From positions 1 to 24,321 of IMG/VR virus record IMGVR_UViG_3300030102_001761: DNA of 24,321 nucleotides. One strand, written 5' to 3'. How positions within the stretch are numbered: position 1 is the stretch's first letter; each line of letters begins with the position of its first letter. Both the position numbers and the translations under genes were made by a program. Origin of the DNA: a virus. Lineage: Duplodnaviria; Caudoviricetes. The notes under the pieces were generated by a model that saw only the letters and a program-made list of their open reading frames with translations, did no database searches and had not been told where the DNA came from. Below, piece after piece: positions 8,901 through 24,321 of the stretch.

Positions 8901-9949
8901 TAGAATGTCTCCCCGTTTACAAGCAACGCGCTTGAACCAAGATGTGAAGCACACAGACCACCCATGAACAGGATGCGACCATAACGTCCATCGTAACCCG
9001 AGATGTCCTCGAAGCCGGTGAACTTAAAGTCAGCGTCTCCGTGAACGTGCAGGTAGATAGCGTCAAGGTTAAGCATTGCCATCGTGTTGGAACCAGCGGA
9101 ACCAGCACCAGCAGCAACGTCCATCGCTCGCTCAGGCATAATCACACCGGACGAGAACTGAAGGCTCTGAACACCAGAGGCATCAAGAGTCTTCGCATCA
9201 ACATAACGCTCCTGCGCAAACAGCGCCTGACGATAGTTGACATACCCGTTGGGCGAGGCAAGGGTCAGGTGGAAACGACCACCGTCACCGTCGGCAGGCA
9301 TAAGCGTAGAAGCCTTGGCTTCCAACTCATACATAGCCGCAATACCGTTAGCCGAGAAGTCGTTCGACGCATTGGCGAACTGGTTCTGGAGACCAACAGC
9401 AAGACCGTGAGAAAGACCACCCATCGTGTTGCCCTGCGAAGCAGGAGCAGCATCCTCAAGGAAGCCAGTCGACACGCCCTGTCCAGCCGTGTTACCGTTA
9501 ATCGTACCAAGCGTAGCAAGGTCGGTCACAGTGTTACCAACAATCTGTTGGTTAATCTTACGCATCAGCGCAGACAATGCATTTTTATATCGCACCTCAG
9601 CAAGGTCAATAATGGCACGCTCGCCAGAGTTCTCAGCCTCTTCACGACCTGAAATAAGAACGGGCATCGCAACTCGCATCCAGTCATACTCAGCCTGCTG
9701 GGTGGCATCACGGACGCTAAGGTCCAGTGCTTCCCAACCGCTTGAGAGAACCGTCAACTGCGAGTGTTCCTCGGTTTCCACGGGAACAACCAACTTGTAG
9801 CCGCCATCAAAGGTGCGGATCTTACCAAGTTTCTTGGATACGCTGAGGAAGGGAGTCGTCTCGAAGAGCGCCTCACTGACCTCATCCTCAATCTCGTAAA
9901 TAGTCGTGGAGAGAATATCATTACTAATTCCAGTCAATGTAATAGACAT
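8900..9949 (-). CDS. Major capsid protein (HK97-fold expected), 349 aa
   Basis: Size; N-terminal LSTT....DEV.EALFETTPFL and GG.KLVVPV, ISGREEAENSG patterns; strong codon bias; own leader and promoter motif; followed by a decoration gene and terminator. Confidence 0.85.
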   Translation of the reverse strand: MSITLTGISNDILSTTIYEIEDEVSEALFETTPFLSVSKKLGKIRTFDGGYKLVVPVETEEHSQLTVLSSGWEALDLSVRDATQQAEYDWMRVAMPVLISGREEAENSGERAIIDLAEVRYKNALSALMRKINQQIVGNTVTDLATLGTINGNTAGQGVSTGFLEDAAPASQGNTMGGLSHGLAVGLQNQFANASNDFSANGIAAMYELEAKASTLMPADGDGGRFHLTLASPNGYVNYRQALFAQERYVDAKTLDASGVQSLQFSSGVIMPERAMDVAAGAGSAGSNTMAMLNLDAIYLHVHGDADFKFTGFEDISGYDGRYGRILFMGGLCASHLGSSALLVNGETF

Positions 9950-10110
9950 GATTTCAATCCTTTATTAAGTTTAAGTTTCTATAGTAAAAAGTTTAACGTT
10001 TATCCATACGACTACTGAGGGTTATTTCAGGTGGATAATCTGAAGTCCTATTTATTCGTGCCGTCTTGAGACTGTAGATAAGTTATCCTATGTGGGTCAA
10101 ACCTACTGCT
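9950..10110 (-). promoter_or_regulatory. Structured ~160-nt 5' leader of the major capsid gene
   Basis: Non-coding gap with two hairpins sharing an AC/AUAAC internal loop (10074-10106 and 10018-10049), then an A/U-rich stretch and RBS AAGGA. Confidence 0.55.
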
Positions 10111-10134
10111 TCATATAATATAATACTTTGTCAA
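10111..10134 (-). promoter_or_regulatory. Copy of recurring late-promoter-like motif (TTGACA-N8-TATTAT)
   Basis: Minus strand TTGACAAAGTATTATATTATATGA directly upstream of the capsid leader. Confidence 0.6.
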
Positions 10135-10136
10135 CC

Positions 10137-10298
10137 TTACAGGGTATTAAGTTTAAGATCAATCTCTCTGAGCAGTAATCTAATTTCAAAGATCTCTTTA
10201 TTGATTGACTCTCTGTCCAGATAGAACTTACTGAGTTCTTTATATTCTATCTTATCAAGATGAGACTCAACTTTATTTATCTTTTCTTTAAGTTTCAT
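10137..10298 (-). CDS. Hypothetical 53-aa coiled-coil-like protein (below ORF-track cutoff)
   Basis: ATGA overlap with the upstream stop; MKLKEKINKVESHLDKIEYKELSKFYLDRESINKEIFEIRLLLREIDLKLNTL*; fills the gap exactly up to the capsid promoter motif. Confidence 0.65.
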   Translation of the reverse strand: MKLKEKINKVESHLDKIEYKELSKFYLDRESINKEIFEIRLLLREIDLKLNTL

Positions 10299-10642
10299 TT
10301 TTCTTTATCCTTCAGTGGTTGGTATTCAATGTAAGTTAAGTAGTGACCTGAGTCTGTATTGGCACGGTAGGCTTCTTTGAAAGAAGCCCAGATAGAACCT
10401 CCTGCTTTACAGATCATTAACAACCCAACCTCAACATCATACTTATTGGAAACAGGTAAGTAAATCCAGTCCTTTTTATAGTTATGCCAAGTTAGTTCCT
10501 TACAGAATTCTTCTATTTGTTCAGGTGTATATCTAATAAACTGTCGTGTCCTAAGTGAACCCATAATGACTCCAGTTTCTTTTTTTGCCCAGAGTGGGTG
10601 TGGTAAATCCTCCCTCTCCATATACCTTATAGGAATTACCAT
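10295..10642 (-). CDS. Hypothetical protein, 115 aa
   Basis: Only long ORF in the interval, divergent from the sigma-like gene; no recognisable motif; start uncertain. Confidence 0.6.
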   Translation of the reverse strand: MVIPIRYMEREDLPHPLWAKKETGVIMGSLRTRQFIRYTPEQIEEFCKELTWHNYKKDWIYLPVSNKYDVEVGLLMICKAGGSIWASFKEAYRANTDSGHYLTYIEYQPLKDKEK

Positions 10643-10678
10643 TCAGTTCTATACTTTTATTTTCTTTTTATTTTGCTC

Positions 10679-10707
10679 TTGACAATCCAGAACCTTTATG
10701 GTATATT
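10679..10707 (+). promoter_or_regulatory. Canonical sigma70-type (early) promoter
   Basis: TTGACA (10679-84), 17-nt spacer, TATATT (10702-07), with an extended -10 TG and a T-rich UP-like tract upstream. Confidence 0.8.
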
Positions 10708-10788
10708 ATATATATTGTGAGAATAAATGTTCTATTGGGATTATTAGAAACTATATATTATAGATGGCAAGGAATAGGAGACCTTACT

Positions 10789-11418
10789 ATGAACGAAGAG
10801 ATTACAGATTTAATATTTAATGAAGGTGGGGTCGCTAGAATCTATTGCTGGAGTCCTTATAGCAAGTATAAACCCTCACAAACTTTAATGAATTACAGAC
10901 GGATTTCTGAGGCAGAGGCTTGGGAATCTACAGATAATGTTTTAATGACTGTCAACGCAGCCTTCTATGCTGATAAGGCAGAGACCCTAATGGAATGGAA
11001 TCCAGAGAAGAGTACCCTGCGTACTTGGATTACTAACCACTTTAATTGGTGGTACTTAGAATGGATGAAAAAACAAATCAACTATGACAAGAATGTTAAG
11101 AAAAGAATCAATGGCTTTTACGATGAAGAAATCAACGAGGCTGAAGTTCAACAATCAATTGAAAAACAAAAGGATGATATGATGTCAGAAGATGAGAATG
11201 AAAAACTAAACAGAATCTTTATGTTTGTCCAGACTCGTGATAAGGCTCAACGGTTTATCTTTTTAGAGATGACTGGAATGGCTAAACTGCAATACAGTGC
11301 GGACAAGAAACGAATCTTAAACTTTCCGGGTAGGGATAACATCTCAGTTCCCGGCTGGTATAAGCGTAGAAAGAAGTTCATTGCTGAACTAAAGGCGTAC
11401 TGCAATGGCAACTACTAA
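10789..11418 (+). CDS. Divergent sigma-factor-like protein (209 aa; start corrected to ATG 10789)
   Basis: RBS AGGAG 8 nt upstream. Region-2.3/2.4-like WNPEKSTLRTWITNHFNWWYLEWMKKQ, an acidic linker, and a degenerate region-4-like C-terminus (DKAQRFIFL...ISVPGWYKRRKKFIAELKAY). Confidence 0.55.
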   Translation: MNEEITDLIFNEGGVARIYCWSPYSKYKPSQTLMNYRRISEAEAWESTDNVLMTVNAAFYADKAETLMEWNPEKSTLRTWITNHFNWWYLEWMKKQINYDKNVKKRINGFYDEEINEAEVQQSIEKQKDDMMSEDENEKLNRIFMFVQTRDKAQRFIFLEMTGMAKLQYSADKKRILNFPGRDNISVPGWYKRRKKFIAELKAYCNGNY

Positions 11419-11447
11419 AAAACCCCTGCCTCGGAATGAGACAGGGG
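11417..11447 (-). terminator. Rho-independent terminator (minus strand)
   Basis: CCCCTGTCTC-ATTCC-GAGGCAGGGG-TTTTTT. The stem is complete (one U-G pair) and followed by U6 only on the minus strand. Confidence 0.85.
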
Positions 11448-11501
11448 CTTAGTTGAATAGGAGACCAACCGATTAAAGTTGAAAGAGACAACAACGTCTC
11501 T
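11417..11501 (-). ncRNA. Candidate ~85-nt small RNA with an anti-Shine-Dalgarno loop
   Basis: Bounded by a promoter-motif copy and a terminator. Three hairpins: AGAGAC/GUCUCU, GGUUGG-UCUCCUAU-UCAACU, and the terminator. It has 11-12 nt perfect complementarity to two RBSs in the window. Confidence 0.65.
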
Positions 11502-11522
11502 ACTAATAGAATCTATTGTCAA
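11499..11522 (-). promoter_or_regulatory. Copy of recurring late-promoter-like motif (TTGACA-N8-TATTAG)
   Basis: Minus strand TTGACAATAGATTCTATTAGTAGA immediately 5' of the candidate sRNA. Confidence 0.55.
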
Positions 11523-11637
11523 TCAGATGGAGGGGAAATGTCGTTTAGTAGTAGTGAAATAAAAAAGTTTTTGAGTATTGAAACCCGGTCTCGTCTACCG
11601 TATCCAACAGACGAACTTAATAATAGGAGTAATAGAG

Positions 11638-12105
11638 ATGACAACAGTACAAGCAAAAAGGTGTCCAAAGTGCGACACATTAAAAGAAGTAAAAGAGTTT
11701 AATAAACACCGCAACAGTTCTGATGGGCTTCAGGGCTACTGTAGAACCTGCTCTAGCAAGGCGGGTAAGGAATGGTATAAAGCCAATCGCCAAGTTGATC
11801 CTTATGTGTATAAGGTTACCTGCCCAGACCATAAGTATTATTATGGGTCCTCGACCATTCACCTTGATGATCGCATAAGGCTACACTTCAGCAACCATCG
11901 AGTCTGTGCCTTAGCCCAGCACGTAACAGGGTCTGGCTGGACCGCTGAAGACTGTGAGGTTCGTGTTATAGGCACAGGCGATCTTAATACCGTAAGGTAT
12001 CAGGAAGCAATGCTTATCCAAAGCAATCTGGATAACGAGAAGTGCCTGAATGTAAGAGGACCAGACAGGAAGTGGATTCCAACTGAGTTTGCTGATGGAG
12101 ATTGA
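11638..12105 (+). CDS. Zinc-finger + GIY-YIG endonuclease (155 aa; start corrected to ATG 11638)
   Basis: N-terminal CPKC...DGLQGYCRTC; GIY-YIG motifs YVY-x8-YYYGSS, R-x3-H (RIRLH), E (YQEAMLI) and N (CLN); RBS AATAGGAG. Confidence 0.8.
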   Translation: MTTVQAKRCPKCDTLKEVKEFNKHRNSSDGLQGYCRTCSSKAGKEWYKANRQVDPYVYKVTCPDHKYYYGSSTIHLDDRIRLHFSNHRVCALAQHVTGSGWTAEDCEVRVIGTGDLNTVRYQEAMLIQSNLDNEKCLNVRGPDRKWIPTEFADGD

Positions 12106-12277
12106 TCACATCAACAACTGCTTCTGGTTGCATTGGTCGGCTTCCTACCACCTAGCAATATATGAATCTTCCACAGATACAAATGAGTTAGCCGACCATT
12201 ACACTGCTTACAAAGATGCTCAATACTTTTTAGACGAGGCTCTTAAAAGAATGATTGAGTTAGACACTTACCACTAG
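12095..12277 (+). CDS. Hypothetical protein, ~60 aa
   Basis: ATG at 12095 overlaps the end of the nuclease gene; helical-looking; its TAG forms part of the next RBS. Confidence 0.55.
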   Translation: MEIDHINNCFWLHWSASYHLAIYESSTDTNELADHYTAYKDAQYFLDEALKRMIELDTYH

Positions 12278-12286
12278 GAGAAGCAA

Positions 12287-12547
12287 ATGAAAGACAAAGA
12301 CATTAAAACACCCTTAGCCGGGTCATTAGGAGAAGAGTATGCGAATGAACTTAGAGTTGTTTATGATAACAGTATTGTTGATAATGGGAACCGTTATGTG
12401 TTCTTTACCACACCGCGAGTTCCAAACAGAGTTGCCGGAACCAGAGTTACCTTGGAAAACCACAAGGCTTCAGCAGATCGAGACGGACCTCACGTTAATG
12501 AGAATCCGAGTGGAACAATTGGAACAGAGGATAGAGGAGAAGATTAA
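12287..12547 (+). CDS. Hypothetical protein, 86 aa (overlaps the next ORF out of frame)
   Basis: RBS TAGGAGAAG upstream of ATG; polar, low-structure sequence. Confidence 0.4.
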   Translation: MKDKDIKTPLAGSLGEEYANELRVVYDNSIVDNGNRYVFFTTPRVPNRVAGTRVTLENHKASADRDGPHVNENPSGTIGTEDRGED

Positions 12548-12551
12548 GTAA
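12339..12551 (+). CDS. Hypothetical membrane-anchored coiled-coil protein, 70 aa
   Basis: RBS TAGGAGAAG; N-terminal hydrophobic segment (LFMITVLLIMGTVMC), Pro-rich linker, C-terminal heptads (RLQQIETDLTLMRIRVEQLEQRIEE). Confidence 0.55.
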   Translation: MRMNLELFMITVLLIMGTVMCSLPHREFQTELPEPELPWKTTRLQQIETDLTLMRIRVEQLEQRIEEKIK

Positions 12552-13053
12552 GGGGTAGGGTTTTCATAATGATCTGCTTTGGCAAGAAGTTCCAGCAATA
12601 GTAACTACTACTGAACGTGATCTTATTATTATCCCTACCGTCTGGAGAAATAAACTTCATCCTTCTATCAAACATCAAGAGTTGTAAGTCCTTGTCTTTG
12701 AACAACTGTTTAGGTGCCGCATCATTCAACCAAGTATTGGTCATGATTAAAGCAAACGGTTTATTAAAAGACAAGGCACGCTCAAAGAACTTTCTTTTAT
12801 TGGTGAAAGGTGGATTGGATACAATCACATCCCACTTCTCTGGTTCATATGTAAAGAAGTCTTGCCCAGCATCTATGTGTGAGAACACAACTTGATTCTG
12901 TTTAGAGATTTGTTTAACGAACTCACTGTCCTTTTTATCAAAGGGACACCAGACGATTGCATCTTCAGGGATAAACTCTAGTATGGGTGCAACACCTAAA
13001 GCAGGTGTATAACACTCATCATTGTTTCCCTTTGAGTATAGAACCTTATTCAT
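12544..13053 (-). CDS. Putative N6-adenine (amino) methyltransferase, small phage type, 169 aa
   Basis: DECYTP, VWCPFD (SAM-binding motif I-like), GQDFF and catalytic motif IV DVIVSNPPF; ATGA-coupled to the upstream gene. Confidence 0.75.
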   Translation of the reverse strand: MNKVLYSKGNNDECYTPALGVAPILEFIPEDAIVWCPFDKKDSEFVKQISKQNQVVFSHIDAGQDFFTYEPEKWDVIVSNPPFTNKRKFFERALSFNKPFALIMTNTWLNDAAPKQLFKDKDLQLLMFDRRMKFISPDGRDNNKITFSSSYYCWNFLPKQIIMKTLPLT

Positions 13054-13241
13054 TCAGATCTCTTCTGATAACCATCACGATACCAGCCCTCCCCCTTCAG
13101 CGCAAAACTGGAGGGGGAGATTTTCTTTTTGGTCTCGGAATTACAGAAAGGACAGGGAGGTGGAGGATCTTCGTATCTCTGCATCACCTCTACCTCGCCC
13201 TTACAGCATTCGTTTAAACACCGAAACTCATAGATAGGCAT
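13050..13241 (-). CDS. FmdB-family zinc-ribbon protein, 63 aa
   Basis: MPIYEFRC...C...CPFC...KKISPSSFALKGEGWY..GY signature; TAATG-coupled to the scaffold gene. Confidence 0.8.
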   Translation of the reverse strand: MPIYEFRCLNECCKGEVEVMQRYEDPPPPCPFCNSETKKKISPSSFALKGEGWYRDGYQKRSE

Positions 13242-14020
13242 TACGCTTTACCTGTCCTCTTCATATGGAGATAAGCCTCGTAGGCGCTCTTGAACTTAGG
13301 CTTATGCACGCCCGGTGTATTACCGGTAGTAACCTTGTAGCCATACTCACGAGCACTGTTACGGTGCATACGAAGTTCCTCATTAAGTTTCTCTTGCTCT
13401 TCACGAGACTTGCGACCCTTGACAAGGTAGTAAGCCTCCTCGGCAGACAAGCCCTTATTTCTAATGAGACCAGCGATATCTTCCTTATGGGTATCAAAGT
13501 CAGGATTCTCAGCACGAAACCTATCAATCTCTGCCTTACGCTTAGAGACTCTAAGTTCATCCTGAGCAGGTTGTAACATATTGCGAAGTTGCTCTGCTGC
13601 CTTAGCCTCAATGTACTTTTGCAGATGTTCTGGGTTGTACATATCAAGTGCTTCGGGCAACTGCATCTTTTCTTTAAGACCGTTCAGCATCTGCTCGTTC
13701 TCAAACAAGGCACGCTCACGGGCTTTCAATTCGTTACGCTCTGTAGAGATCCTAGTAGTTTTCTTTCTATAATCCTCGCGAAGGTTCTGAACTAACTTCT
13801 TTGCTTCAGGGGAAAGTTGTCTAATAACTTCATCATACTTGATGCCCTTGTGCTTAGTTTGTTCAAACTCTGGTCCAGTCAAGTGCGTGTCAAGCAACTG
13901 GTCTAAGTCAATAGTATCTGCTGGGGTAGTCTGCGGAACCTCAACCGTAGGCTCAGCAGCAGGTGCTGATGCTTCGGCTGGGGTATTGACTTGTGCAGTC
14001 CCAACGTTTTCATCACTCAT
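13241..14020 (-). CDS. Capsid scaffolding protein, 259 aa
   Basis: Acidic Pro/Ala/Glu-rich N-terminus, LREDYRKKTTRIS.ER coiled-coil, FRAENPDF...EEAYYLVK; RBS AAGGAG; downstream of the portal. Confidence 0.7.
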   Translation of the reverse strand: MSDENVGTAQVNTPAEASAPAAEPTVEVPQTTPADTIDLDQLLDTHLTGPEFEQTKHKGIKYDEVIRQLSPEAKKLVQNLREDYRKKTTRISTERNELKARERALFENEQMLNGLKEKMQLPEALDMYNPEHLQKYIEAKAAEQLRNMLQPAQDELRVSKRKAEIDRFRAENPDFDTHKEDIAGLIRNKGLSAEEAYYLVKGRKSREEQEKLNEELRMHRNSAREYGYKVTTGNTPGVHKPKFKSAYEAYLHMKRTGKA

Positions 14021-14031
14021 TTATGTTCTCC

Positions 14032-14583
14032 TTAAAAGCCTAATGCGGCTAGGTCTAATGCGGCTTCCTCTGTAGGAGCCTCTCCCTCAACAGTAACTTC
14101 TTCAACAACTTCCTCAACCGGTGCTTCCTCTGGAGCGTCAGTCTGAAGGAACTTCTTGAAAGCCTTATCTTTAACTAATTTAGTAATCTTAGCAGAGATA
14201 GCAGCCAAGTCCTTATCACGGGTCACGGCATTCAGATCACCAAAGGAATGAATGTTTTCTTCATCACCCTCAGCCATCGTGTAACTTTCAGTCGCACTCT
14301 GGATAGCCATGATGGCACGGAATAGATCCTGCGGGAGAGGTCCATCCTTGATGTCCTCAAACTCAGTTCCAATCTCTGGAGCGCCAATCAACTTATTAAA
14401 CGAATTGATTGACCGAGCGAGAGCAGACAGGCGTGTCTTACCAAACCTACCTGTGGGTGCATTACCTGCAACCGTCTCGTCTAAAGCCTGAGCCTCTGCT
14501 AACTCAACTTCCATAATGTCCTCGGGCATCACCTCCCCTTGTGTGGGTAAGGGTGCAGATGCCATTCTATCTTCAATAGCCAT
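14032..14583 (-). CDS. Hypothetical acidic head-module protein, 183 aa
   Basis: RBS AAGGAG; acidic termini; between portal and scaffold. Confidence 0.65.
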   Translation of the reverse strand: MAIEDRMASAPLPTQGEVMPEDIMEVELAEAQALDETVAGNAPTGRFGKTRLSALARSINSFNKLIGAPEIGTEFEDIKDGPLPQDLFRAIMAIQSATESYTMAEGDEENIHSFGDLNAVTRDKDLAAISAKITKLVKDKAFKKFLQTDAPEEAPVEEVVEEVTVEGEAPTEEAALDLAALGF

Positions 14584-14597
14584 AATAATATTCTCCT

Positions 14598-15092
14598 TTA
14601 AAAGTCGTCTATGGTTTTAGTGAACTCACCATCAAGAGCAGGTTTAGCAGGACAATACTCCTCCCAGAACCTCTCCTGATCTTTAATATCTTTACACGCC
14701 TTGGCTCCCTCCCAGTAAGCATCTGCTCGGTCATCAAGGTATTTCTCATACTTCATTGCTTTTTCATTGTGATCTTCCAAGTAATACTTGGGCATATCAT
14801 CTAACGGAACTACACCCCTTGCTTTACAAATCGCATCTCGCTCTTCGTAAGAGTTGTAGCGTACCCCCAATCCCCGGTCAAAGAAACCGTTGATTCCCCA
14901 CTTACCAGTTCCCCCGGCTCCCCACTTATCGGGGGTGCGAGCAATAAGATTAACCCGTCGTCTTACCGCAATCGCACCAGTAAGTGCACCCTTCAATTGA
15001 TCTGGAACCTCAGAAGCCTTAAAGATTTCTTCTATGGTCTCGCCTGAAGGAAGACCATCCGGTCCTAGTATATCGTATACATACAGTGGCAT
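14598..15092 (-). CDS. Hypothetical protein with FmdB-like MPLY.Y start but no zinc-ribbon cysteines, 164 aa
   Basis: TAATG-coupled to the portal; MPLYVYD...IEEIF; FDRGLGVRYNSYEER..ICKARG segment. Confidence 0.65.
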   Translation of the reverse strand: MPLYVYDILGPDGLPSGETIEEIFKASEVPDQLKGALTGAIAVRRRVNLIARTPDKWGAGGTGKWGINGFFDRGLGVRYNSYEERDAICKARGVVPLDDMPKYYLEDHNEKAMKYEKYLDDRADAYWEGAKACKDIKDQERFWEEYCPAKPALDGEFTKTIDDF

Positions 15093-16807
15093 TACTCAGT
15101 AATCCCTTGTGCTAGTATGTCCATGCCTGCTCCACGGATGGCTGCTGCCTCCGTTCCACCACCAACGGGTATTGCGTCGGGACTATCTGCTGGAGGACCA
15201 AGAGGAGCCTGCTGGGCTCCCTGACCACCACCCGGTGCTGTAGGCATTGGGGGTGCTTCCTCTGGCATAAAGTCTTCGGGCAGGTTGTGAAGTCTAATAA
15301 GTTCTTCCAAGATCTTGCGAGGGTCAACACCCAACTGAACAAGAACAGGAAGCAACTCTGTAATGGATTGCTTCTTGATAGCAGCAGACAGAGGGGTAGA
15401 GGACTGGTCAGCGGCAGCATATTTAAACTTACCTCTAAAGTCTTCCTCAGTCAGAACCTTAACATTGCCATCAATATAAACCATTTCTTTAGCGTGATCA
15501 TCAGGCTTGGTCATCAGAAGATGCTGGAACATACTTACGTAAATCTGACAGATGATCTCAAGAGACCGGTCACGGGACCTTGCTAGTTTGCCAATCTCTG
15601 AAGCAGAGTATTGGGTAAGAGCAGCAATCTCTGTGGCAGATGCATTGGTAGCCTGACCTCTGGTGAAGGGAGCAAGGATAGAACCACGGTCCAGATCCTG
15701 TCTAACCTCAGCCTTGTAGATACTGTAGTCAGGAGAAAATGTATTAGCAATCAGAGGAACGATAGCAGTACGAGCATCAGAATCAGGAGGCAAGTCCATC
15801 TCCACAATAGACTGGTCACGGTTCTCTGCGAGGATGGCTTTCGCCTCTTCATCTAGAGTTCCCTTTCTGGTTACATAGACACGAGCATCACGGCGTAGAC
15901 CGTTAGCCCAGACAGTCCGTAAGTTATTAACTTCCCACAACTGGTCGTAGATCAGACCCAATCTAGAGAAACCCTTGAGAGGATACTGCGGATCGTATGC
16001 AAGATACATAGGAGCGATTGGGGCTTGGGGAGTGCCATCGGGCTTACGGAAAGGAACCGCAGGAGCCTTCTCAATCACTCCATCCTTGCTGTCGTAGTTG
16101 GGAGAATAAAAGATTAACTCATCATTGATAAGGTCATACAGTTCGTAGATCTCAACATACTGAAGGAGTGCATCATCTATATCATCAATCTTGCCACCAT
16201 TGGATAAAAGATAAGATGTGTCTGCTGAATCAAGAACCTGATTGAACTCATTAAGATAATCATTCTTGATGGATGCCTTGAACCTTTTGTTACCAAAGCG
16301 CTCCTTGGCTTGCTTGGCTGGGAGATAGTATCGATGCCCACAGAAGCGCATCGACTCCCAGTTGTTAGCATCCATATCAATTATAACATCCCAAGGATGC
16401 ACCGCTTTAATGTCGATGCTATCCATTGCCAGTTCCTTTTCCATCAAACCAAGTTTAAAGAACGCGCAAGGATAGATAAGAGCATACCGCAATCCAGTCT
16501 CAAGCATCTCTGCCTTCTCATACAGGAAACGGTTAAGCACCATCTCTACTGTATCGGGCTCCCCAATGCCCTGTGGATCTCCCCCCACCGCTACGGCTGG
16601 AGCCTTGGCAAATAGAGAAGCAATAAAACTTTCTACAAACCCATAGGCATCAGCAGTCTCAACAGTGACTACTCCACCCTTTGCTGTCTTTTGCTCACGA
16701 AACATCTCAGAGCGATAGGCTCTGGTGTATGCCTCCATAGCGTGCTTGCGCTGATCCCAATAGTTTCGGTGCGCTATAATAATCTGGGATATATCTTTTG
16801 CTTTCAT
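15092..16807 (-). CDS. Portal protein, 571 aa
   Basis: Directly after TerL (TAATG); VHPWDVIID.DA..W, PLKGFS, RG....ASATEIA portal-like motifs; Pro/Gly-rich disordered tail. Confidence 0.85.
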   Translation of the reverse strand: MKAKDISQIIIAHRNYWDQRKHAMEAYTRAYRSEMFREQKTAKGGVVTVETADAYGFVESFIASLFAKAPAVAVGGDPQGIGEPDTVEMVLNRFLYEKAEMLETGLRYALIYPCAFFKLGLMEKELAMDSIDIKAVHPWDVIIDMDANNWESMRFCGHRYYLPAKQAKERFGNKRFKASIKNDYLNEFNQVLDSADTSYLLSNGGKIDDIDDALLQYVEIYELYDLINDELIFYSPNYDSKDGVIEKAPAVPFRKPDGTPQAPIAPMYLAYDPQYPLKGFSRLGLIYDQLWEVNNLRTVWANGLRRDARVYVTRKGTLDEEAKAILAENRDQSIVEMDLPPDSDARTAIVPLIANTFSPDYSIYKAEVRQDLDRGSILAPFTRGQATNASATEIAALTQYSASEIGKLARSRDRSLEIICQIYVSMFQHLLMTKPDDHAKEMVYIDGNVKVLTEEDFRGKFKYAAADQSSTPLSAAIKKQSITELLPVLVQLGVDPRKILEELIRLHNLPEDFMPEEAPPMPTAPGGGQGAQQAPLGPPADSPDAIPVGGGTEAAAIRGAGMDILAQGITE

Positions 16808-18309
16808 TACCTAAATCTCCTCGATGATTTTAATGGATGTGCGGTCGTAATGGGTCTATGCTTAGAGGGACGTCGTTTCTTAACTATCATTCTGTCCCAA
16901 TCAGTCTTCGGTGTCTGAACACTTTGTAAACCACGTAGTGCTAAAGCGTAAGCAATACACCGATCATCGTGGTAGTTGTTCCCTTCAGGGTGGTGCGGTG
17001 CCCTACCCTTGTCATCAATCACGAGGTTTCTCATCTCGCTGAATGTAATGGAATCAATGTTCTCAATAATTCTTTCTTGCAGAGAGGACTTGAACATATC
17101 ATAAAGTTTAATCTTACTCTTCTGCGTGGTAGTAAACGGAACGTAGTTAGAGAAACCAAACCCATCAAAGATTTCTTTAACTGCTGCCCCGTGGTTGTTA
17201 AGTTCAAAAGTTACTGGTGCCTTGTAGGCTCTAGCGATTTGGATTACCTCCTCACTGAAAGCCTTGATAGATAGTTGATTGGAACTGATGATTGCTACTG
17301 GGCTATACGAGATCTTGTCTAGAACGTAAGCAACAGAGAAATCTCTTCCGACACCGGACGCAGGATCAAAACCCACGCTGTAACGATTCCGATCATTATA
17401 GGGTTGAAGAACAACCCGTAGTTTATTTTGTACATCAATAACTTCCAAAGGATCCAGATCTTCATGGCTAAAGAAGTTCTGATCATCCAGAGTATATGCC
17501 TCTTCCAAGTTCGCCGGGTACTCTCGGCGGAAGAGACTTTCTGATTTGATTTCTTCAAGTTTACACCGTCGCCAATAGATCTGTTCATCAGTGAGATTGT
17601 ACAGTTCTTTAAGCGTTTCTTCATTGGAATAAAATGTCAACCCACCTTTTGGTAGTTCCTTCCTGTAATCTGGGAAGGTAAACCAAGGCATCATTATTAC
17701 TTTCCAAGAATCATTATACTGAGCATCCATCGCAATCTGGTGCAGGGCATCACCCCAGTAGTTGGGGGTGCTTTCCACTACGACGTTGGCATCATTAGCA
17801 GATGCTAACAAAGATGCTAATACTTCATCAGCCTTATCATAGAAGGCAAACTCTGATAGATGAGCACCGTTAAATGTATACCCTCTGTCCGTAGCGTCTG
17901 ACTGTGCCGAGAAGGCACCTAGAGAGGCTCCTGTGGCTTCAAAGGTTATCTCATCCCTCTTAATAGTAGAAGCCCGTCTAAGGGGCTTAGGAAGCGTATT
18001 AAGAAATCTCTTGTCTATATCAAGCAACTCTGTAGCAGAACGTAACTTGTTAGACATAACAGCAAACTTTAAAGGATCGGCTGCACAGTAAGCCCGCCAA
18101 AAGAAGTAGGACCTACAAAGAGTAGACGAACCAAGTTGCCGTGCCTTTACAACAGCAACCCTTTTATTATTTTCCAGTGTATTAAGTAATCTAACTTGCT
18201 CTGGATTGATAACGTGACCAAAGGTTTTCAACTTCGCGTTCTTATCTTTAATCTTAAGACGCGGGATGAACTCGTGTGGGTCTAGTATAATGTCACTTAG
18301 GTTCGACAT
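16807..18309 (-). CDS. terL: Terminase large subunit, 500 aa
   Basis: Walker A VVKARQLGSST, Walker B GAHLSEFAF, coupling motif VVESTPN, RNase H-like nuclease acids GFDPASG..RDFS and HDDR. Confidence 0.93.
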   Translation of the reverse strand: MSNLSDIILDPHEFIPRLKIKDKNAKLKTFGHVINPEQVRLLNTLENNKRVAVVKARQLGSSTLCRSYFFWRAYCAADPLKFAVMSNKLRSATELLDIDKRFLNTLPKPLRRASTIKRDEITFEATGASLGAFSAQSDATDRGYTFNGAHLSEFAFYDKADEVLASLLASANDANVVVESTPNYWGDALHQIAMDAQYNDSWKVIMMPWFTFPDYRKELPKGGLTFYSNEETLKELYNLTDEQIYWRRCKLEEIKSESLFRREYPANLEEAYTLDDQNFFSHEDLDPLEVIDVQNKLRVVLQPYNDRNRYSVGFDPASGVGRDFSVAYVLDKISYSPVAIISSNQLSIKAFSEEVIQIARAYKAPVTFELNNHGAAVKEIFDGFGFSNYVPFTTTQKSKIKLYDMFKSSLQERIIENIDSITFSEMRNLVIDDKGRAPHHPEGNNYHDDRCIAYALALRGLQSVQTPKTDWDRMIVKKRRPSKHRPITTAHPLKSSRRFR

Positions 18310-18550
18310 TGGGGTCCTTCTTCTTTACAGACACCAGCCACTCATCGACTGGAGAAGAACCATCTTCACCGACCACCGTTAGACCACGATATAAAACAAG
18401 TAGTGAGATTAAGTCTTGAGGCTTGAAGCCTTTAAAGTCTTCATCAGCAAACTTAGATGTGACATCGTATATCAAACACCTAACTGCTTCTGCTATATCA
18501 CCACTTTCAAGAGCCTTTAAGCCCTTTGTTATTTTCTTTCTTCGTGCCAT
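18293..18550 (-). CDS. Candidate terminase small subunit, 85 aa
   Basis: Immediately upstream of and overlapping TerL; basic N-terminus, helical core. Function from position only. Confidence 0.45.
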   Translation of the reverse strand: MARRKKITKGLKALESGDIAEAVRCLIYDVTSKFADEDFKGFKPQDLISLLVLYRGLTVVGEDGSSPVDEWLVSVKKKDPNVEPK

Positions 18551-18612
18551 TGTTCCATCCGGTGTTATTCTTTTCCCGTAAAGGTATTCATAGAAATCTT
18601 TATGGGAGAAGG

Positions 18613-18810
18613 CTAATCTTCTGGTTCGCTATTAATAGGAAGATTTGTCAATACTTCCTCAAGAGAAGGAGGGGAACACTTCTTCATTAACTTTTTTAAG
18701 TAACGTTCGATGTTCCCCCCTGTGATTACCCTGCGTGCGACACGTTCGAGGTTTCTCCTCTCTTTGTTTCTCTTATGATACTCTCTTTGTTTTTTCTCAT
18801 AAGTGCTCAA
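18613..18810 (-). CDS. Hypothetical basic protein, 65 aa (TTG start)
   Basis: Overlaps the end of the sigma-R4 gene; Arg/Lys-rich helix (KKQREYHKRNKERRNLERVARR); GAGGA upstream. Confidence 0.5.
   Translation of the reverse strand: MSTYEKKQREYHKRNKERRNLERVARRVITGGNIERYLKKLMKKCSPPSLEEVLTNLPINSEPED
18628..18651 (-). promoter_or_regulatory. Copy of recurring late-promoter-like motif (TTGACA-N8-TATTAA)
   Basis: Minus strand TTGACAAATCTTCCTATTAATAGC about 80 nt upstream of the TerS/TerL/portal block, inside the 3' end of the 65-aa ORF. Confidence 0.55.
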
Positions 18811-19201
18811 TCTTAATGTTTCCTCGCAACTTCTTCAGTGCTTTTGCGTAGCACTTGCGAACAGATTCGTGTGAACAATTCTCTAAGCCTGCAACATAAC
18901 GAAGGGAAGCATCGTCCTCTGCAATCGCTAAGAATACTCTCATCTCTTTCTCTGTAAGCAAACCTTCTATCTCATCCAAGAGATTATTATATCTTTTATG
19001 ACTGTCTTCTCTTTCAATGTATGTGGCTTCGGGACTAGGGAAAGAGTTAAGCCAACTGTCATTAGCAGAGATATACCTAACATAATCATACATCTCTAAG
19101 TTTAATACTTCTTGATATGTCTCAGCCTGCTCTAGTTTGTCTGAGTATGTTACTCTTGCAGGTCTCATGGTCTTACTACCGTACTTTCTTTTGCTCATCA
19201 T
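18797..19201 (-). CDS. Stand-alone sigma-70 region-4 HTH protein (133-134 aa; start at ATG 19201 or 19198)
   Basis: LLTEKEMRVFLAIAEDDASLRYVAGLENCSHESVRKCYAKALKKLR is a clear region-4 pattern; no region 2 recognised; RBS ATAGGAGACC. Confidence 0.8.
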   Translation of the reverse strand: MMSKRKYGSKTMRPARVTYSDKLEQAETYQEVLNLEMYDYVRYISANDSWLNSFPSPEATYIEREDSHKRYNNLLDEIEGLLTEKEMRVFLAIAEDDASLRYVAGLENCSHESVRKCYAKALKKLRGNIKIEHL

Positions 19202-19243
19202 ATGGTCTCCTATATGTAGATTTACAATATCTACACAATAAGT

Positions 19244-19272
19244 AGTATACAACAAACTGAACGGTAATTCAA
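19244..19272 (-). promoter_or_regulatory. Sigma70-type (early) promoter of the sigma-R4 gene
   Basis: Minus strand TTGAAT (19272-67), 17-nt spacer, TATACT (19249-44). Confidence 0.65.
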
Positions 19273-19283
19273 GTTGACATTTA

Positions 19284-20375
19284 TTATTCAGGTATGTTAG
19301 GGTAAAACTCCTCTAAGTGTCCAATCACTCGCTTTTTGTAATCCGCTCTCTCATCCTGATCCGGTTTCTGCACGCGGATTATGTAGTCTGCGATACGCCC
19401 CCGCGCTCCGGGACTAACGATGTCAAGGTCAGCCTGCGGTGCGAAGTTTCTTCTGTACAACTGATACATTGTAGTGACAGCACCTTGGAAAGCAGGATCG
19501 GGGTCAGTATTAAGTCTGTAGGTTATTTCATCAGTAAGCCTGTTTTGCCCTTCATCTGTCTGGAGATCGCCCATATCTAAACCACGGTCCATAAAGAATG
19601 CTTGTAGTACCGCCGAGTCATCTGGATTCCTACGCATATAATTTAAAGCGTCTTTGATTGTTCGTCCTTCTATCTGTGTAGCACCGACGGCACCGAAGAG
19701 CGGATCTCTAGGTCTATAGGGCGTGAGCAGTCCCTCTGCCTCTAGACGCCTTTTTATCTCTCTTTGACCTTCTGGTGTGGTAGGATCTAAACCCCGCGCT
19801 ACACGTCTTAGATCTTTCTCAAGCGGCTCGGATATTCTAGGAGCAGTTCTGGGCATAGCATCAAACTCGTCCTCTAAAAGATTAGGTGATCTAGGATCCA
19901 AGCCAGCCGCACCTTGGCGTAGCATTATGCCCGGATCTCCCTCCCGACCTAAGTAAGATTCTTGCTCACCTACCATCTGAAGTTCAGCAATTAATCTAGA
20001 CTTCTCTGGATCTAGTCTGGGGATGTGCTTAGCAAACTCTGCTGTAAAATCACCCACTTGCCTGAACAAAGGAACTGAAGGATATGGAACATCCATAACT
20101 TTAGGTTCGTCAGCATAAGTTTCTAGAGAAGGTGTCGGTGCGTCTGGGACAAGTACATCCTCTGTGCCTGTGCGTAAAACAGTACCCTCAATAAAAGTAT
20201 CGTATGCTGAACTTTCTGGTACCATAAAAGGAGAATCAAAAACAGGCTCTGGTAAGACTTCGAGATTTGGTCCTTCGTCTGCTGGTCGCCGGATATATCT
20301 AATAACCGGAGCGTTGGGATCTACTTCCTCTTCCTCTTCTTCCTCACCACCAAATAGAAAGTCTAAGATGCCCAT
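19284..20375 (-). CDS. Putative lysozyme-fold/lytic transglycosylase-like protein with acidic N-terminus, 363 aa
   Basis: SLT-like motif I (MVGEQESYLG) and motif II (GAVGATQI...T..D) separated by an unusually long segment; follows a holin-like gene. Confidence 0.4.
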   Translation of the reverse strand: MGILDFLFGGEEEEEEEVDPNAPVIRYIRRPADEGPNLEVLPEPVFDSPFMVPESSAYDTFIEGTVLRTGTEDVLVPDAPTPSLETYADEPKVMDVPYPSVPLFRQVGDFTAEFAKHIPRLDPEKSRLIAELQMVGEQESYLGREGDPGIMLRQGAAGLDPRSPNLLEDEFDAMPRTAPRISEPLEKDLRRVARGLDPTTPEGQREIKRRLEAEGLLTPYRPRDPLFGAVGATQIEGRTIKDALNYMRRNPDDSAVLQAFFMDRGLDMGDLQTDEGQNRLTDEITYRLNTDPDPAFQGAVTTMYQLYRRNFAPQADLDIVSPGARGRIADYIIRVQKPDQDERADYKKRVIGHLEEFYPNIPE

Positions 20376-22064: not shown

Positions 22065-22087
22065 TCATATATTAAATGTTTTGTCAT
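22065..22087 (-). promoter_or_regulatory. Copy of recurring late-promoter-like motif (ATGACA-N7-TAATAT)
   Basis: Minus strand ATGACAAAACATTTAATATATGA in the intergenic gap. Confidence 0.5.
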
Positions 22088-22841: not shown

Positions 22842-24321
22842 TTTGTTAGTTCCCTTAATGATCTGATTCTTTCTTCTCTGGTGCGTAGTGGAATCTCTTC
22901 TGGCAGCGGCTCATCAGTAGCGATGATAACTCCCATAGAACGCATCCACTCTTGCCAGTCTTCTTGCAGAGCCAAGCGACTGCCGGGTACTTCACCGGGC
23001 ATTGACTCTTGCGTTGCTATAATACTACCATAATCCATAATGGTTCTTTTTAATCCTATACCAAGTGCTGCTTCCATGAATGCATAGTGCGCACGACGGC
23101 TAGCCATATCATCATAAGGTATGCGCCATTGCACACCAGCATATGTGGTTGCACCATAGCGTTGCTCGTCAAGTGGAACAGGCTCAAGGTTAACTACTGA
23201 AGTATAGGCTTCCCACAGTTCAGCATTGCGAGACAGATACCAAACCATTCTGGGATCTAGATAAGTTCCAAAGGTTCTAGCCTCACCAAACTTAATTTCT
23301 TTACCAAACATAATGGCAGCAGCAAACCTGTAGAGAGGAGAAGCCTTGCTAGCAAGTTCAAGACCAATAGTCTCTGCCGCTTCCAAGGGAGCGTCAGGTG
23401 CTTTAGCCATCAGAGGTATAAAGGAAAGATAGTTAATAACATCATCCATAGCAGAGATGTATGGAATCGATGGACCATACAGGCTATAGCGTCTCTGGTT
23501 CTCAGGGTCATCAATGATTGCCAAGCGAGCACGAGAGTTTAAGTAATCTCTACTGTCTGGGTAGAACTGTCTGTCGTCATAGCCGCCAATGTTCTGTGCT
23601 AGTTTGGCAGCGTTCTTTGCTCTAGTAGGATTATTAACCATTGTCTTAAGCACAGTCTTGATTGCCTGACGCTGGAAGGTATAGAACCAAGCGACCTTGG
23701 CAATGTATTTCTTTTCAAAGTTGCTAAGCCCACCGTAATCAAACAGTGCTTCTCTGGCTAGTCGGATAGCCTCTTGCTTAGACTTGCCTTCTTTAAGAGC
23801 CTTGATGAGCACACCCACCCGGAAGGCAACATCAGTTCCATTACCAAGTTGTGTGGTTAAATTCATTTCTCTTGCAGGGTTCCAGTTCCTTCTCATCTGA
23901 TCTTTAATAAAGTTAACTGAAGTTCCATCAGCCAGTTGCCCAGAGTAACGAAGCATACTTTCTAGGATGTTAGAAGAAATCTCCGCTCGTGCCTGTGACT
24001 TAGTAATAGAGTTATCCACAACTAAATCCGCAAGCATAGAGGTAGTGATAGGCTCTCTTGTTACTGGATGCATAAACAAAACTCTATCTGATATCTTCTG
24101 TCCCATTAGTCTCAAGCCATAGACCTGCTTCATTACATCGACAACATCAATATTAAATACTGACAGTGCGTATCGACCACCAACTGTAGAGTCAATGATT
24201 GCTGGTGCGGTCAGTGCGTTAGCCATTAAGAAGTTAATGTTAGCAATAGGAGTAACGCCCGACAGCACACCGGTCTTGGCTATGTTGGCACCAGCCTCAA
24301 GGTTCTTGGCAGGAGACAGTG
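22838..24321 (-). CDS. C-terminal part of a large internal virion/ejection protein (5'-truncated)
   Basis: The frame is open from the window edge (LSPAKNLEAGANIAKTGVLSG...), so the GTG at 24268 is probably internal. AIRLAREALFDYGGLSNFEKK...WFYTFQRQ resembles C-terminal motifs of large podophage ejection proteins. Confidence 0.7.
   Translation of the reverse strand, partial: LSPAKNLEAGANIAKTGVLSGVTPIANINFLMANALTAPAIIDSTVGGRYALSVFNIDVVDVMKQVYGLRLMGQKISDRVLFMHPVTREPITTSMLADLVVDNSITKSQARAEISSNILESMLRYSGQLADGTSVNFIKDQMRRNWNPAREMNLTTQLGNGTDVAFRVGVLIKALKEGKSKQEAIRLAREALFDYGGLSNFEKKYIAKVAWFYTFQRQAIKTVLKTMVNNPTRAKNAAKLAQNIGGYDDRQFYPDSRDYLNSRARLAIIDDPENQRRYSLYGPSIPYISAMDDVINYLSFIPLMAKAPDAPLEAAETIGLELASKASPLYRFAAAIMFGKEIKFGEARTFGTYLDPRMVWYLSRNAELWEAYTSVVNLEPVPLDEQRYGATTYAGVQWRIPYDDMASRRAHYAFMEAALGIGLKRTIMDYGSIIATQESMPGEVPGSRLALQEDWQEWMRSMGVIIATDEPLPEEIPLRTREERIRSLRELTK

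Follow-up and report, generated by a model that had tools for sequence, protein, structure and literature searches.

A short unit on the minus strand of the window (the whole stretch of 24,321 nucleotides analysed here) is on balance likely to make a small RNA of ~85 nt that acts in trans, blocking the ribosome-binding sites (RBSs) of the first gene of the early operon and of a gene for a sigma70 region-4-like (sigma-R4) protein, probably once late transcription begins. What the sequences show directly is the anatomy of the unit, its occurrence across seven lineages and a match of seed to target that is lineage-specific; it is a real, family-wide feature and, as judged from its sequence, would act like a trans-encoded sRNA. 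More tentatively, and with slightly more doubt than confidence, we propose that a family of small uncultured phages may end its early programme by an RNA switch, in which a sigma-like factor would read a short-spaced late promoter to give a trans-acting sRNA that clamps two starts, one in the operon encoding the factor and one in the gene for a second regulator, the sigma-R4 protein; in several lineages seed and targets would have changed in concert.

The window covers 24 kb of an uncultured tailed phage whose nearest relative, G001, is 31.9 kb long and 98% complete. Its minus strand carries the terminase, portal, capsid and virion genes, and a short plus-strand block runs from a near-consensus sigma70 promoter through a gene for a 209-aa protein to a GIY-YIG gene.

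10679 to 10707, plus strand: sigma70-type early promoter, TTGACA-17-TATATT with TG, 11/12 consensus, the top site within 9000-20000
10789 to 11418, plus strand: gene for the 209-aa sigma70/ECF-like protein (AlphaFold model pLDDT 77)
18797 to 19201, minus strand: gene for the 133/134-aa protein, which has a sigma70 region-4-like HTH; the late motif at 18651 and the terminase genes lie downstream of it

Against named phages the capsid gave matches of 25-27% only and the sigma-R4 protein gave none. Pfam returned no match for the large virion proteins of G001, a result that speaks neither for nor against a virion RNA polymerase. In the window and among the listed ORFs of G001 (rated 98% complete, with part of the proteins scanned) nothing was recognised as a DNA polymerase, primase, helicase or integrase.

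The 209-aa protein is probably an ECF-type sigma factor, as judged from its structure model. The top structure matches are mostly sigma factors and cover both halves of the model (Z 7.1 or less; no Foldseek match at E ≤ 0.001), and those of its Atlas neighbours that have a Pfam family belong to sigma70; the protein itself gave no Pfam or NCBIfam match above cut-off. The 133-aa protein matched Pfam Sigma70_r4 (E 0.0013), a PHROG sigma family (E 4e-5) and TIGR02937 (E 6e-5), the Pfam and NCBIfam scores being below cut-off, and the early status of its gene rests on a 9/12 promoter match, which is at chance level. The C-terminal, region-4-like half of the sigma-like protein occurs as two types that assort independently of the N-terminal half (window 11100-11400 compared with P0002-P0004 and L001), a pattern that suggests recombination.

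The coordinates and strings given for the unit in the initial annotation were all verified in the sequence. Its parts are as follows.

11502 to 11522, minus strand: promoter-like late-type motif, TTGACA, 8 nt, TATTAG, a putative promoter from its recurrence ahead of late genes
11417 to 11501, minus strand: predicted small RNA of 85 nt, from folding and 95-97% identity in G001 and L002
11484 to 11501, minus strand: 5' hairpin, nt 1-18, stem invariant and loop altered in both close relatives
11471 to 11478, minus strand: possible second seed, nt 24-31, mostly within the loop of an alternative hairpin (11482-11465)
11455 to 11466, minus strand: anti-SD seed, nt 36-47, with 12-nt and 11-nt complements to two target RBSs, core unpaired at ≥0.99
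11417 to 11450, minus strand: intrinsic terminator from the fold, with a G+C stem, 5-nt loop and U-tract

Transcription is predicted to start at 11501-11500 on the minus strand, and we consider it very likely that the predicted RNA is real. The minus-strand fold has a z of about -5, none of 200 shuffles being equally stable, with the terminator hairpin supplying much of the stability. The identity of the unit in G001 and L002 compares with 78-81% for the flanking genes, and the terminator hairpin is invariant in these close relatives. Folding supports the terminator as first described, a G+C hairpin plus U-tract, although it is missing from a simple terminator scan. The second hairpin, which was said to display CUCCU in its loop, has a pairing probability of ~0.7 in the window. 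The value for G001 and L002 is 0.12, and in these a rival hairpin (nt 19-38) places the anti-SD sequence in an open 14-nt strand. The anti-SD loop was rejected as a conserved fold on account of this low value in the two closest relatives; CUCCUAU is unpaired (≥0.99) in either fold. On its own strand the RNA is covered by no ORF of at least 45 aa, the length from which ORFs were listed, and on the opposite strand no ORF is conserved across lineages. It overlaps only the stop codon of the sigma-like gene and intergenic DNA, and would be antisense to the early mRNA if that mRNA reads through. The cmscan check that had been suggested gave no Rfam match near gathering score at the unit, and there were none at gathering score at four related loci.

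To rank the starts that each RNA might bind, start regions from -30 to +20 were scored with our own script combining duplexfold and accessibility (duplex energy plus opening costs) rather than with IntaRNA, on gene starts from a simple caller with known errors. Three RBSs of the window are relevant.

10772 to 10783, plus strand: predicted target 1, RBS of the sigma-like gene, first gene of the early operon; rank 3/31 in the window, 1/24 in L002 and ~5/33 in G001
19203 to 19213, minus strand: predicted target 2, RBS of the sigma-R4 gene; rank 1/31 in the window, 2/33 in G001 and 3/24 in L002
11622 to 11629, plus strand: RBS of the GIY-YIG gene, with the 8-nt AATAGGAG; rank 2/31 in the window, through the variable loop of hairpin 1

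Both of the long complements reported initially are present. The sequence GAATAGGAGACC stands at 11455-11466 and again at 10772-10783 (plus strand) in the RBS of the sigma-like gene, giving a complement of 12 nt, and ATAGGAGACCA stands at 19213-19203 (minus strand) in the RBS of the sigma-R4 gene, giving one of 11 nt. The 10-mer common to the unit and the two RBSs, ATAGGAGACC, a pattern taken from the finding itself, occurs three times in the window against 0.06 expected and in none of 100 shuffles. RBSs containing AGGAG are found at 14 of the 31 called genes of the window; the match to the seed is 12 and 11 nt long at the two named here and 5-8 nt long at the remaining 12. The 8-nt match at the GIY-YIG RBS is also there, but the gene was rejected as a specific target since the pairing runs through the variable loop of hairpin 1 and the gene is outside the top 8 in both G001 and L002.

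On pairing, the two close relatives speak partly for and partly against. In L002 the 12-nt match to the sigma-like gene is intact and is joined by a perfect 8-nt match in the first codons, the second seed being complementary to nt +11 to +18 of the gene at 8/8 positions in L002 and at 7/8 in the window and G001. A change in the sigma-R4 RBS of L002 gives a G-U pair. In G001 a change in the sigma-like RBS is uncompensated and shortens the match from 12 nt to 8. The start of an L002 gene at 12282-12470 (plus strand) pairs with nt 24-43 of the RNA (rank 2/24) and may be an additional early target specific to L002.

The useful relatives came from alignments of the capsid and scaffold, at ~70% capsid identity. 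An exact scan with 17 nt of DNA gave four loci, one a true relative and three matching over the pattern only; the sigma-like protein as query gave at least two close loci (metagenome scan over 37 of 64 parts), and in the genome-contig collection no relative was found. Twenty-one of the 23 scaffold loci were read, L086 and L088 ending inside the scaffold gene. The complete unit, with promoter motif, CU-rich stretch and a hairpin followed by a U-tract, is present in 18 of these 21, many of them duplicates; the sequences of L073 and L076 end too early, and the unit of L074 is truncated. In the distant relatives it is flanked by the scaffold block on one side and the early operon on the other. Inspection by eye of 24-47 kb of G012, which has 49% capsid identity, revealed no unit.

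Together the window, L002 and the loci of relatives provide 13 distinct RNAs of 80-186 nt in seven lineages: A (window, G001, L002), B (G004, L070), C (L075), D (G005, L077), E (G006, L078), F (G003, L079) and H (G010, L071). Pairwise identity among the seven representatives is 0.32-0.63, terminators included. Lineages A (G001 and L002) and D (G005) have in common a predicted fold of hairpin, hairpin, 14-nt strand and terminator at ~56% identity (window against G005). The 5' hairpin is seen again in B, C, D and F, and in D a second seed lies at the equivalent structural place. In E and H the seeds are within one long hairpin and the U-tracts are weaker; F has such a hairpin together with a 5' hairpin and a separate terminator. 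The unit shares its strand with the late genes in A, B and C and with the early genes in D, and runs opposite to both in E and H; despite this varying orientation to the early and late genes the motif and U-tract mark the anti-RBS strand.

The late motif at the unit recurs at 22087, 18651, 10134 and 2200, all on the minus strand and upstream of structural or packaging genes, and it is also found in relatives.

10114 to 10134, minus strand: late-motif copy upstream of the major capsid gene, from motif recurrence

A search with a pattern drawn post hoc from the observed copies gave five matches against 0.19 expected, one of them intragenic, and missed the copy at 2200. The unit uses the motif in six of the seven lineages, and the same motif precedes the capsid and terminase genes. 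In lineage H a sigma70-consensus TTGACA-17-TATAAT takes its place, so that late timing would not hold for every lineage. Measured from the first T of the motif, the 5' hairpin starts 21-22 nt downstream in six RNAs from four lineages, as it does in G003 and L078. In the motif a TTGACA-like hexamer is just 7-8 nt upstream of a T/A-rich element, and some SD sequences also begin 21-22 nt downstream. With this spacing the hexamer would be at about -20, nearer to the start than in sigma70 promoters by roughly one turn of the helix.

Specific pairing in trans is quite probable, and the evidence for it comes mainly from comparing RNAs with targets of their own and of foreign lineages. The first gene of the early operon, which is downstream of a sigma70-like site scoring 8-12/12, is predicted to bind its own RNA with a mean of -12.4 kcal/mol, as against -7.2 kcal/mol for foreign pairs, and no other of the 5040 lineage permutations scores better. 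Removal of A, D and E, which are the window's own lineage and two of the three first seen by eye, does not change this (1/24). Among 12 genome/RNA pairs the gene has rank 1 in six and is within the top three in ten. The same test for the sigma-R4 gene gave 3/720 and is carried by A, D and E (2/6 without them), the gene being matched also in D and more weakly in E, and unmatched in F and H. The permutation counts are strong support rather than exact probabilities, because the target class was picked after lineages B, D and E had been seen by eye and because the lineages are related. Four late-gene controls were null (scaffold 3417, portal 2475 and two neighbours 654 and 4468 of 5040), and genome-wide RBS style therefore does not explain the lineage matching.

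The start of the sigma-like gene itself gave 77/720, which is not significant, and was rejected as a target for the whole family; what recurs as target is the first gene of the sigma-encoding operon. Where the sigma gene is not first in its operon (G005, L077, G006, L078, G010 and L071) it overlaps or abuts the gene upstream. The first early gene and the sigma-R4 gene are again the partners in the two longest perfect complements of G005 and of L077, through a different seed. Reciprocal swaps within close pairs favoured the natural combinations. For G006 and L078 the RNAs scored -21.7 and -15.9 on their own targets and -13.4 and -13.5 when swapped, a change in codon 2 being mirrored in the RNA, and for G010 and L071 the values were -10.8 and -12.5 against -7.9 and -7.3. 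Compensatory changes between RNA and target, for which the initial annotation had proposed a search, are thus seen in these two pairs but not in G001 or in L077, where a change in the target of the second seed is uncompensated and weakens the score from -17.8 to -13.6. In lineage B the first early gene is missed: it scores -3.1, worse than the genome's median value of -4.2, whereas the two early genes after it do better; lineage C is weak, with the first early gene at 3/8. Of the sRNA originally envisaged, aimed at both sigma-like genes, the predicted trans pairing with early start regions and both window targets hold, while the sigma start as general target, the display in a loop as a conserved feature and the GIY-YIG gene are not supported.

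On balance it is likely that the unit works as follows. The motif would be a late promoter, presumably recognised with the help of either or both phage sigma-like proteins, from which transcription would begin 21-22 nt past TTGACA. The product would be a short stable RNA, protected by its 5' hairpin and ended by the terminator, whose open seed would cover the SD sequence, often with a second seed on the first codons, and repress translation. Its targets would be the sigma-R4 gene and the gene that heads the early operon, which in the window is the sigma-like gene. A sigma gene that is not first in its operon may be silenced via translational coupling to the adjoining upstream gene. Together these steps would form a negative feedback that stops synthesis of the early regulators, if the sigma-like proteins read the late motif. 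For this full loop, in which the sigma-like factors would read the late motif and the late RNA would shut off their synthesis, the chances appear nearly balanced, leaning slightly against. The shut-off of early regulators in phages is mostly explained by proteins, and, if the proposal is true, a late trans-acting RNA against the phage's own sigma operon would be an RNA layer in the lytic timetable. The natural RNA-target pairs from several lineages would also be a ready cross-specificity matrix for which the host is not needed, and the replaced seeds would show both sRNA-target co-evolution and why such RNAs escape sequence-based family searches.

The main rival reading, which we regard as unlikely, keeps the base-pairing RNA and gives it a role in immunity or superinfection exclusion, or as a threshold timer made from early on, so that genomes of its own lineage, whether incoming or resident, would have their early operon silenced, as C4 does in P1/P7. 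Rapid co-divergence of seed and target, as in specificity systems, would be consistent with this, as would the sigma70-consensus promoter of lineage H and the heteroimmunity described for C4 in the available part of PMC12197685. However, six of the seven lineages place the unit behind the motif of the capsid and terminase genes, and scans of the window proteins and of 16 proteins of relatives recognised neither an integrase nor a repressor.

Without specific targets the RNA would be a generic anti-SD RNA that damps translation broadly, of the host or of all phage mRNAs. All the seeds are CU-rich, and the CU-rich RNAs of E and F bind many starts, foreign ones included, strongly (to -22), with genome medians of -6.7 to -9.5 (the 6-gene fragment L079 excepted). 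Against this, the lineage matching found for early genes is lacking for the four late genes, and the seed of lineage D is not a plain anti-SD, binding foreign first-gene starts at just -1.6 to -4.3. A generic role is very improbable.

We give equally little weight to the idea that the terminator alone matters, stopping late read-through, and that the RBS-like string arose by duplication or decay of a start region, or serves on the sense strand as a site for protein binding. The terminator is indeed on the late strand in the window, B and C, and the reverse complements of the seeds resemble copies of gene starts, which may be their origin. In D, E, F and H, however, the motif and U-tract are opposite the scaffold-gene strand, the unit is more conserved than the flanking genes, and the target change in L002 preserves pairing through G-U while breaking identity. 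The motif on the anti-RBS strand, the conservation of the unit and the same G-U change likewise disfavour the possibility, raised at the outset as one that would undo the proposal, that 11455-11466 is the decayed RBS of a lost plus-strand gene.

The plus-strand AGGAG has, as first noted, no ATG at RBS distance, but an ATT at 11472 lies 8 nt downstream in frame with an ORF at 11538-11702. That AGGAG is the real RBS of a 76-codon ORF from this ATT, for which the spacing and a frame open in the window, G001 and L002 would speak, is scarcely credible and was rejected, since the 22-codon extension has one synonymous change against five and four non-synonymous changes and the comparable frames in nine other units are absent or measure up to 45 codons, with no conservation within close pairs. 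The 54-aa ORF at 11538-11702 (plus strand) has a GGAGG RBS, is present in G001 and L002, and overlaps the start of the GIY-YIG gene in another frame; its first 33 codons show synonymous/non-synonymous changes of 5/5 and 3/5.

Trans-encoded bacterial sRNAs with CU-rich seeds, as presented in the available part of PMC12197685, are likewise stand-alone units of 80-190 nt with a U-tract terminator, a short seed over the SD and start codon and more than one target; 6C RNA is a C-rich example (PMC6486639, available part). The unit differs from them in being phage-encoded, by prediction aimed at the phage's own regulators and placed behind a phage late-type motif, and in having seeds that are replaced between lineages and no Rfam match. 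C4 of P1/P7 is also a phage RNA with two short pairing elements that occlude the RBS on a phage regulatory mRNA, and its specificity too differs between related phages (PMC12197685 and PMC5320573, in the parts available). According to the same sources RNase P releases C4, an RNA of three stems, from a longer transcript, and C4 represses an antirepressor and keeps lysogeny. The unit in contrast has its own predicted promoter and terminator, a predicted fold of serial hairpins ending in the terminator, and predicted targets in the sigma-encoding operon and the sigma-R4 gene, 0.7 and 7.7 kb away. Membership of C4 was rejected, as no C4 family was among the three Rfam matches at E ≤ 5 and fold and target differ.

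Lambda OOP, aQ and P22 sar, in the available part of PMC12197685, are likewise small phage RNAs that lower a developmental regulator, and aQ, which lowers an activator of late genes, is proposed there to act in cis. These are antisense to the target gene, whereas the predicted targets of the unit are remote and the pairing is short and imperfect; a cis-antisense RNA of this type was rejected because the unit is not opposite the start or coding region of its target. Late non-coding RNAs of virulent Pseudomonas phages (PAK_P3 ncRNA1/2 and those of phiKZ) are also short and from lytic phages, some of them abundant late, but those are observed transcripts, several of them processed from UTRs, and their targets are not given in the available parts of PMC10914365 and PMC8545117; the unit is known from sequence and its targets are predicted by co-variation. 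The described phage sRNAs act on lysogeny, on the host or as single-gene antisense RNAs, according to the part of PMC12197685 available. No such circuit was found described in the titles and abstract openings searched, which cover a small part of the subscription journals; PMC12197685 tabulates 38 uncharacterised phage sRNAs.

Several further features were seen along these genomes. The slots adjoining the early block and the capsid promoter hold differing methyltransferase-like or other genes among close relatives, and in most relatives a leader of 110-165 nt follows the late motif and precedes the capsid gene, with low sequence conservation across lineages.

12544 to 13053 in the window, against 26209-28762 and 23110-23919 in G001 and near 11300-12295 in L002: variable slots
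9950 to 10112, minus strand: capsid leader of the window, with counterparts in the capsid leaders of relatives

Two tRNA-like sequences were seen by eye in intergenic gaps of G012, at 28712-28916 and 43935-44075. In G010 the promoter and leader at 10160-10760 are in near-exact tandem duplication around a run of N, which may be an assembly artefact.
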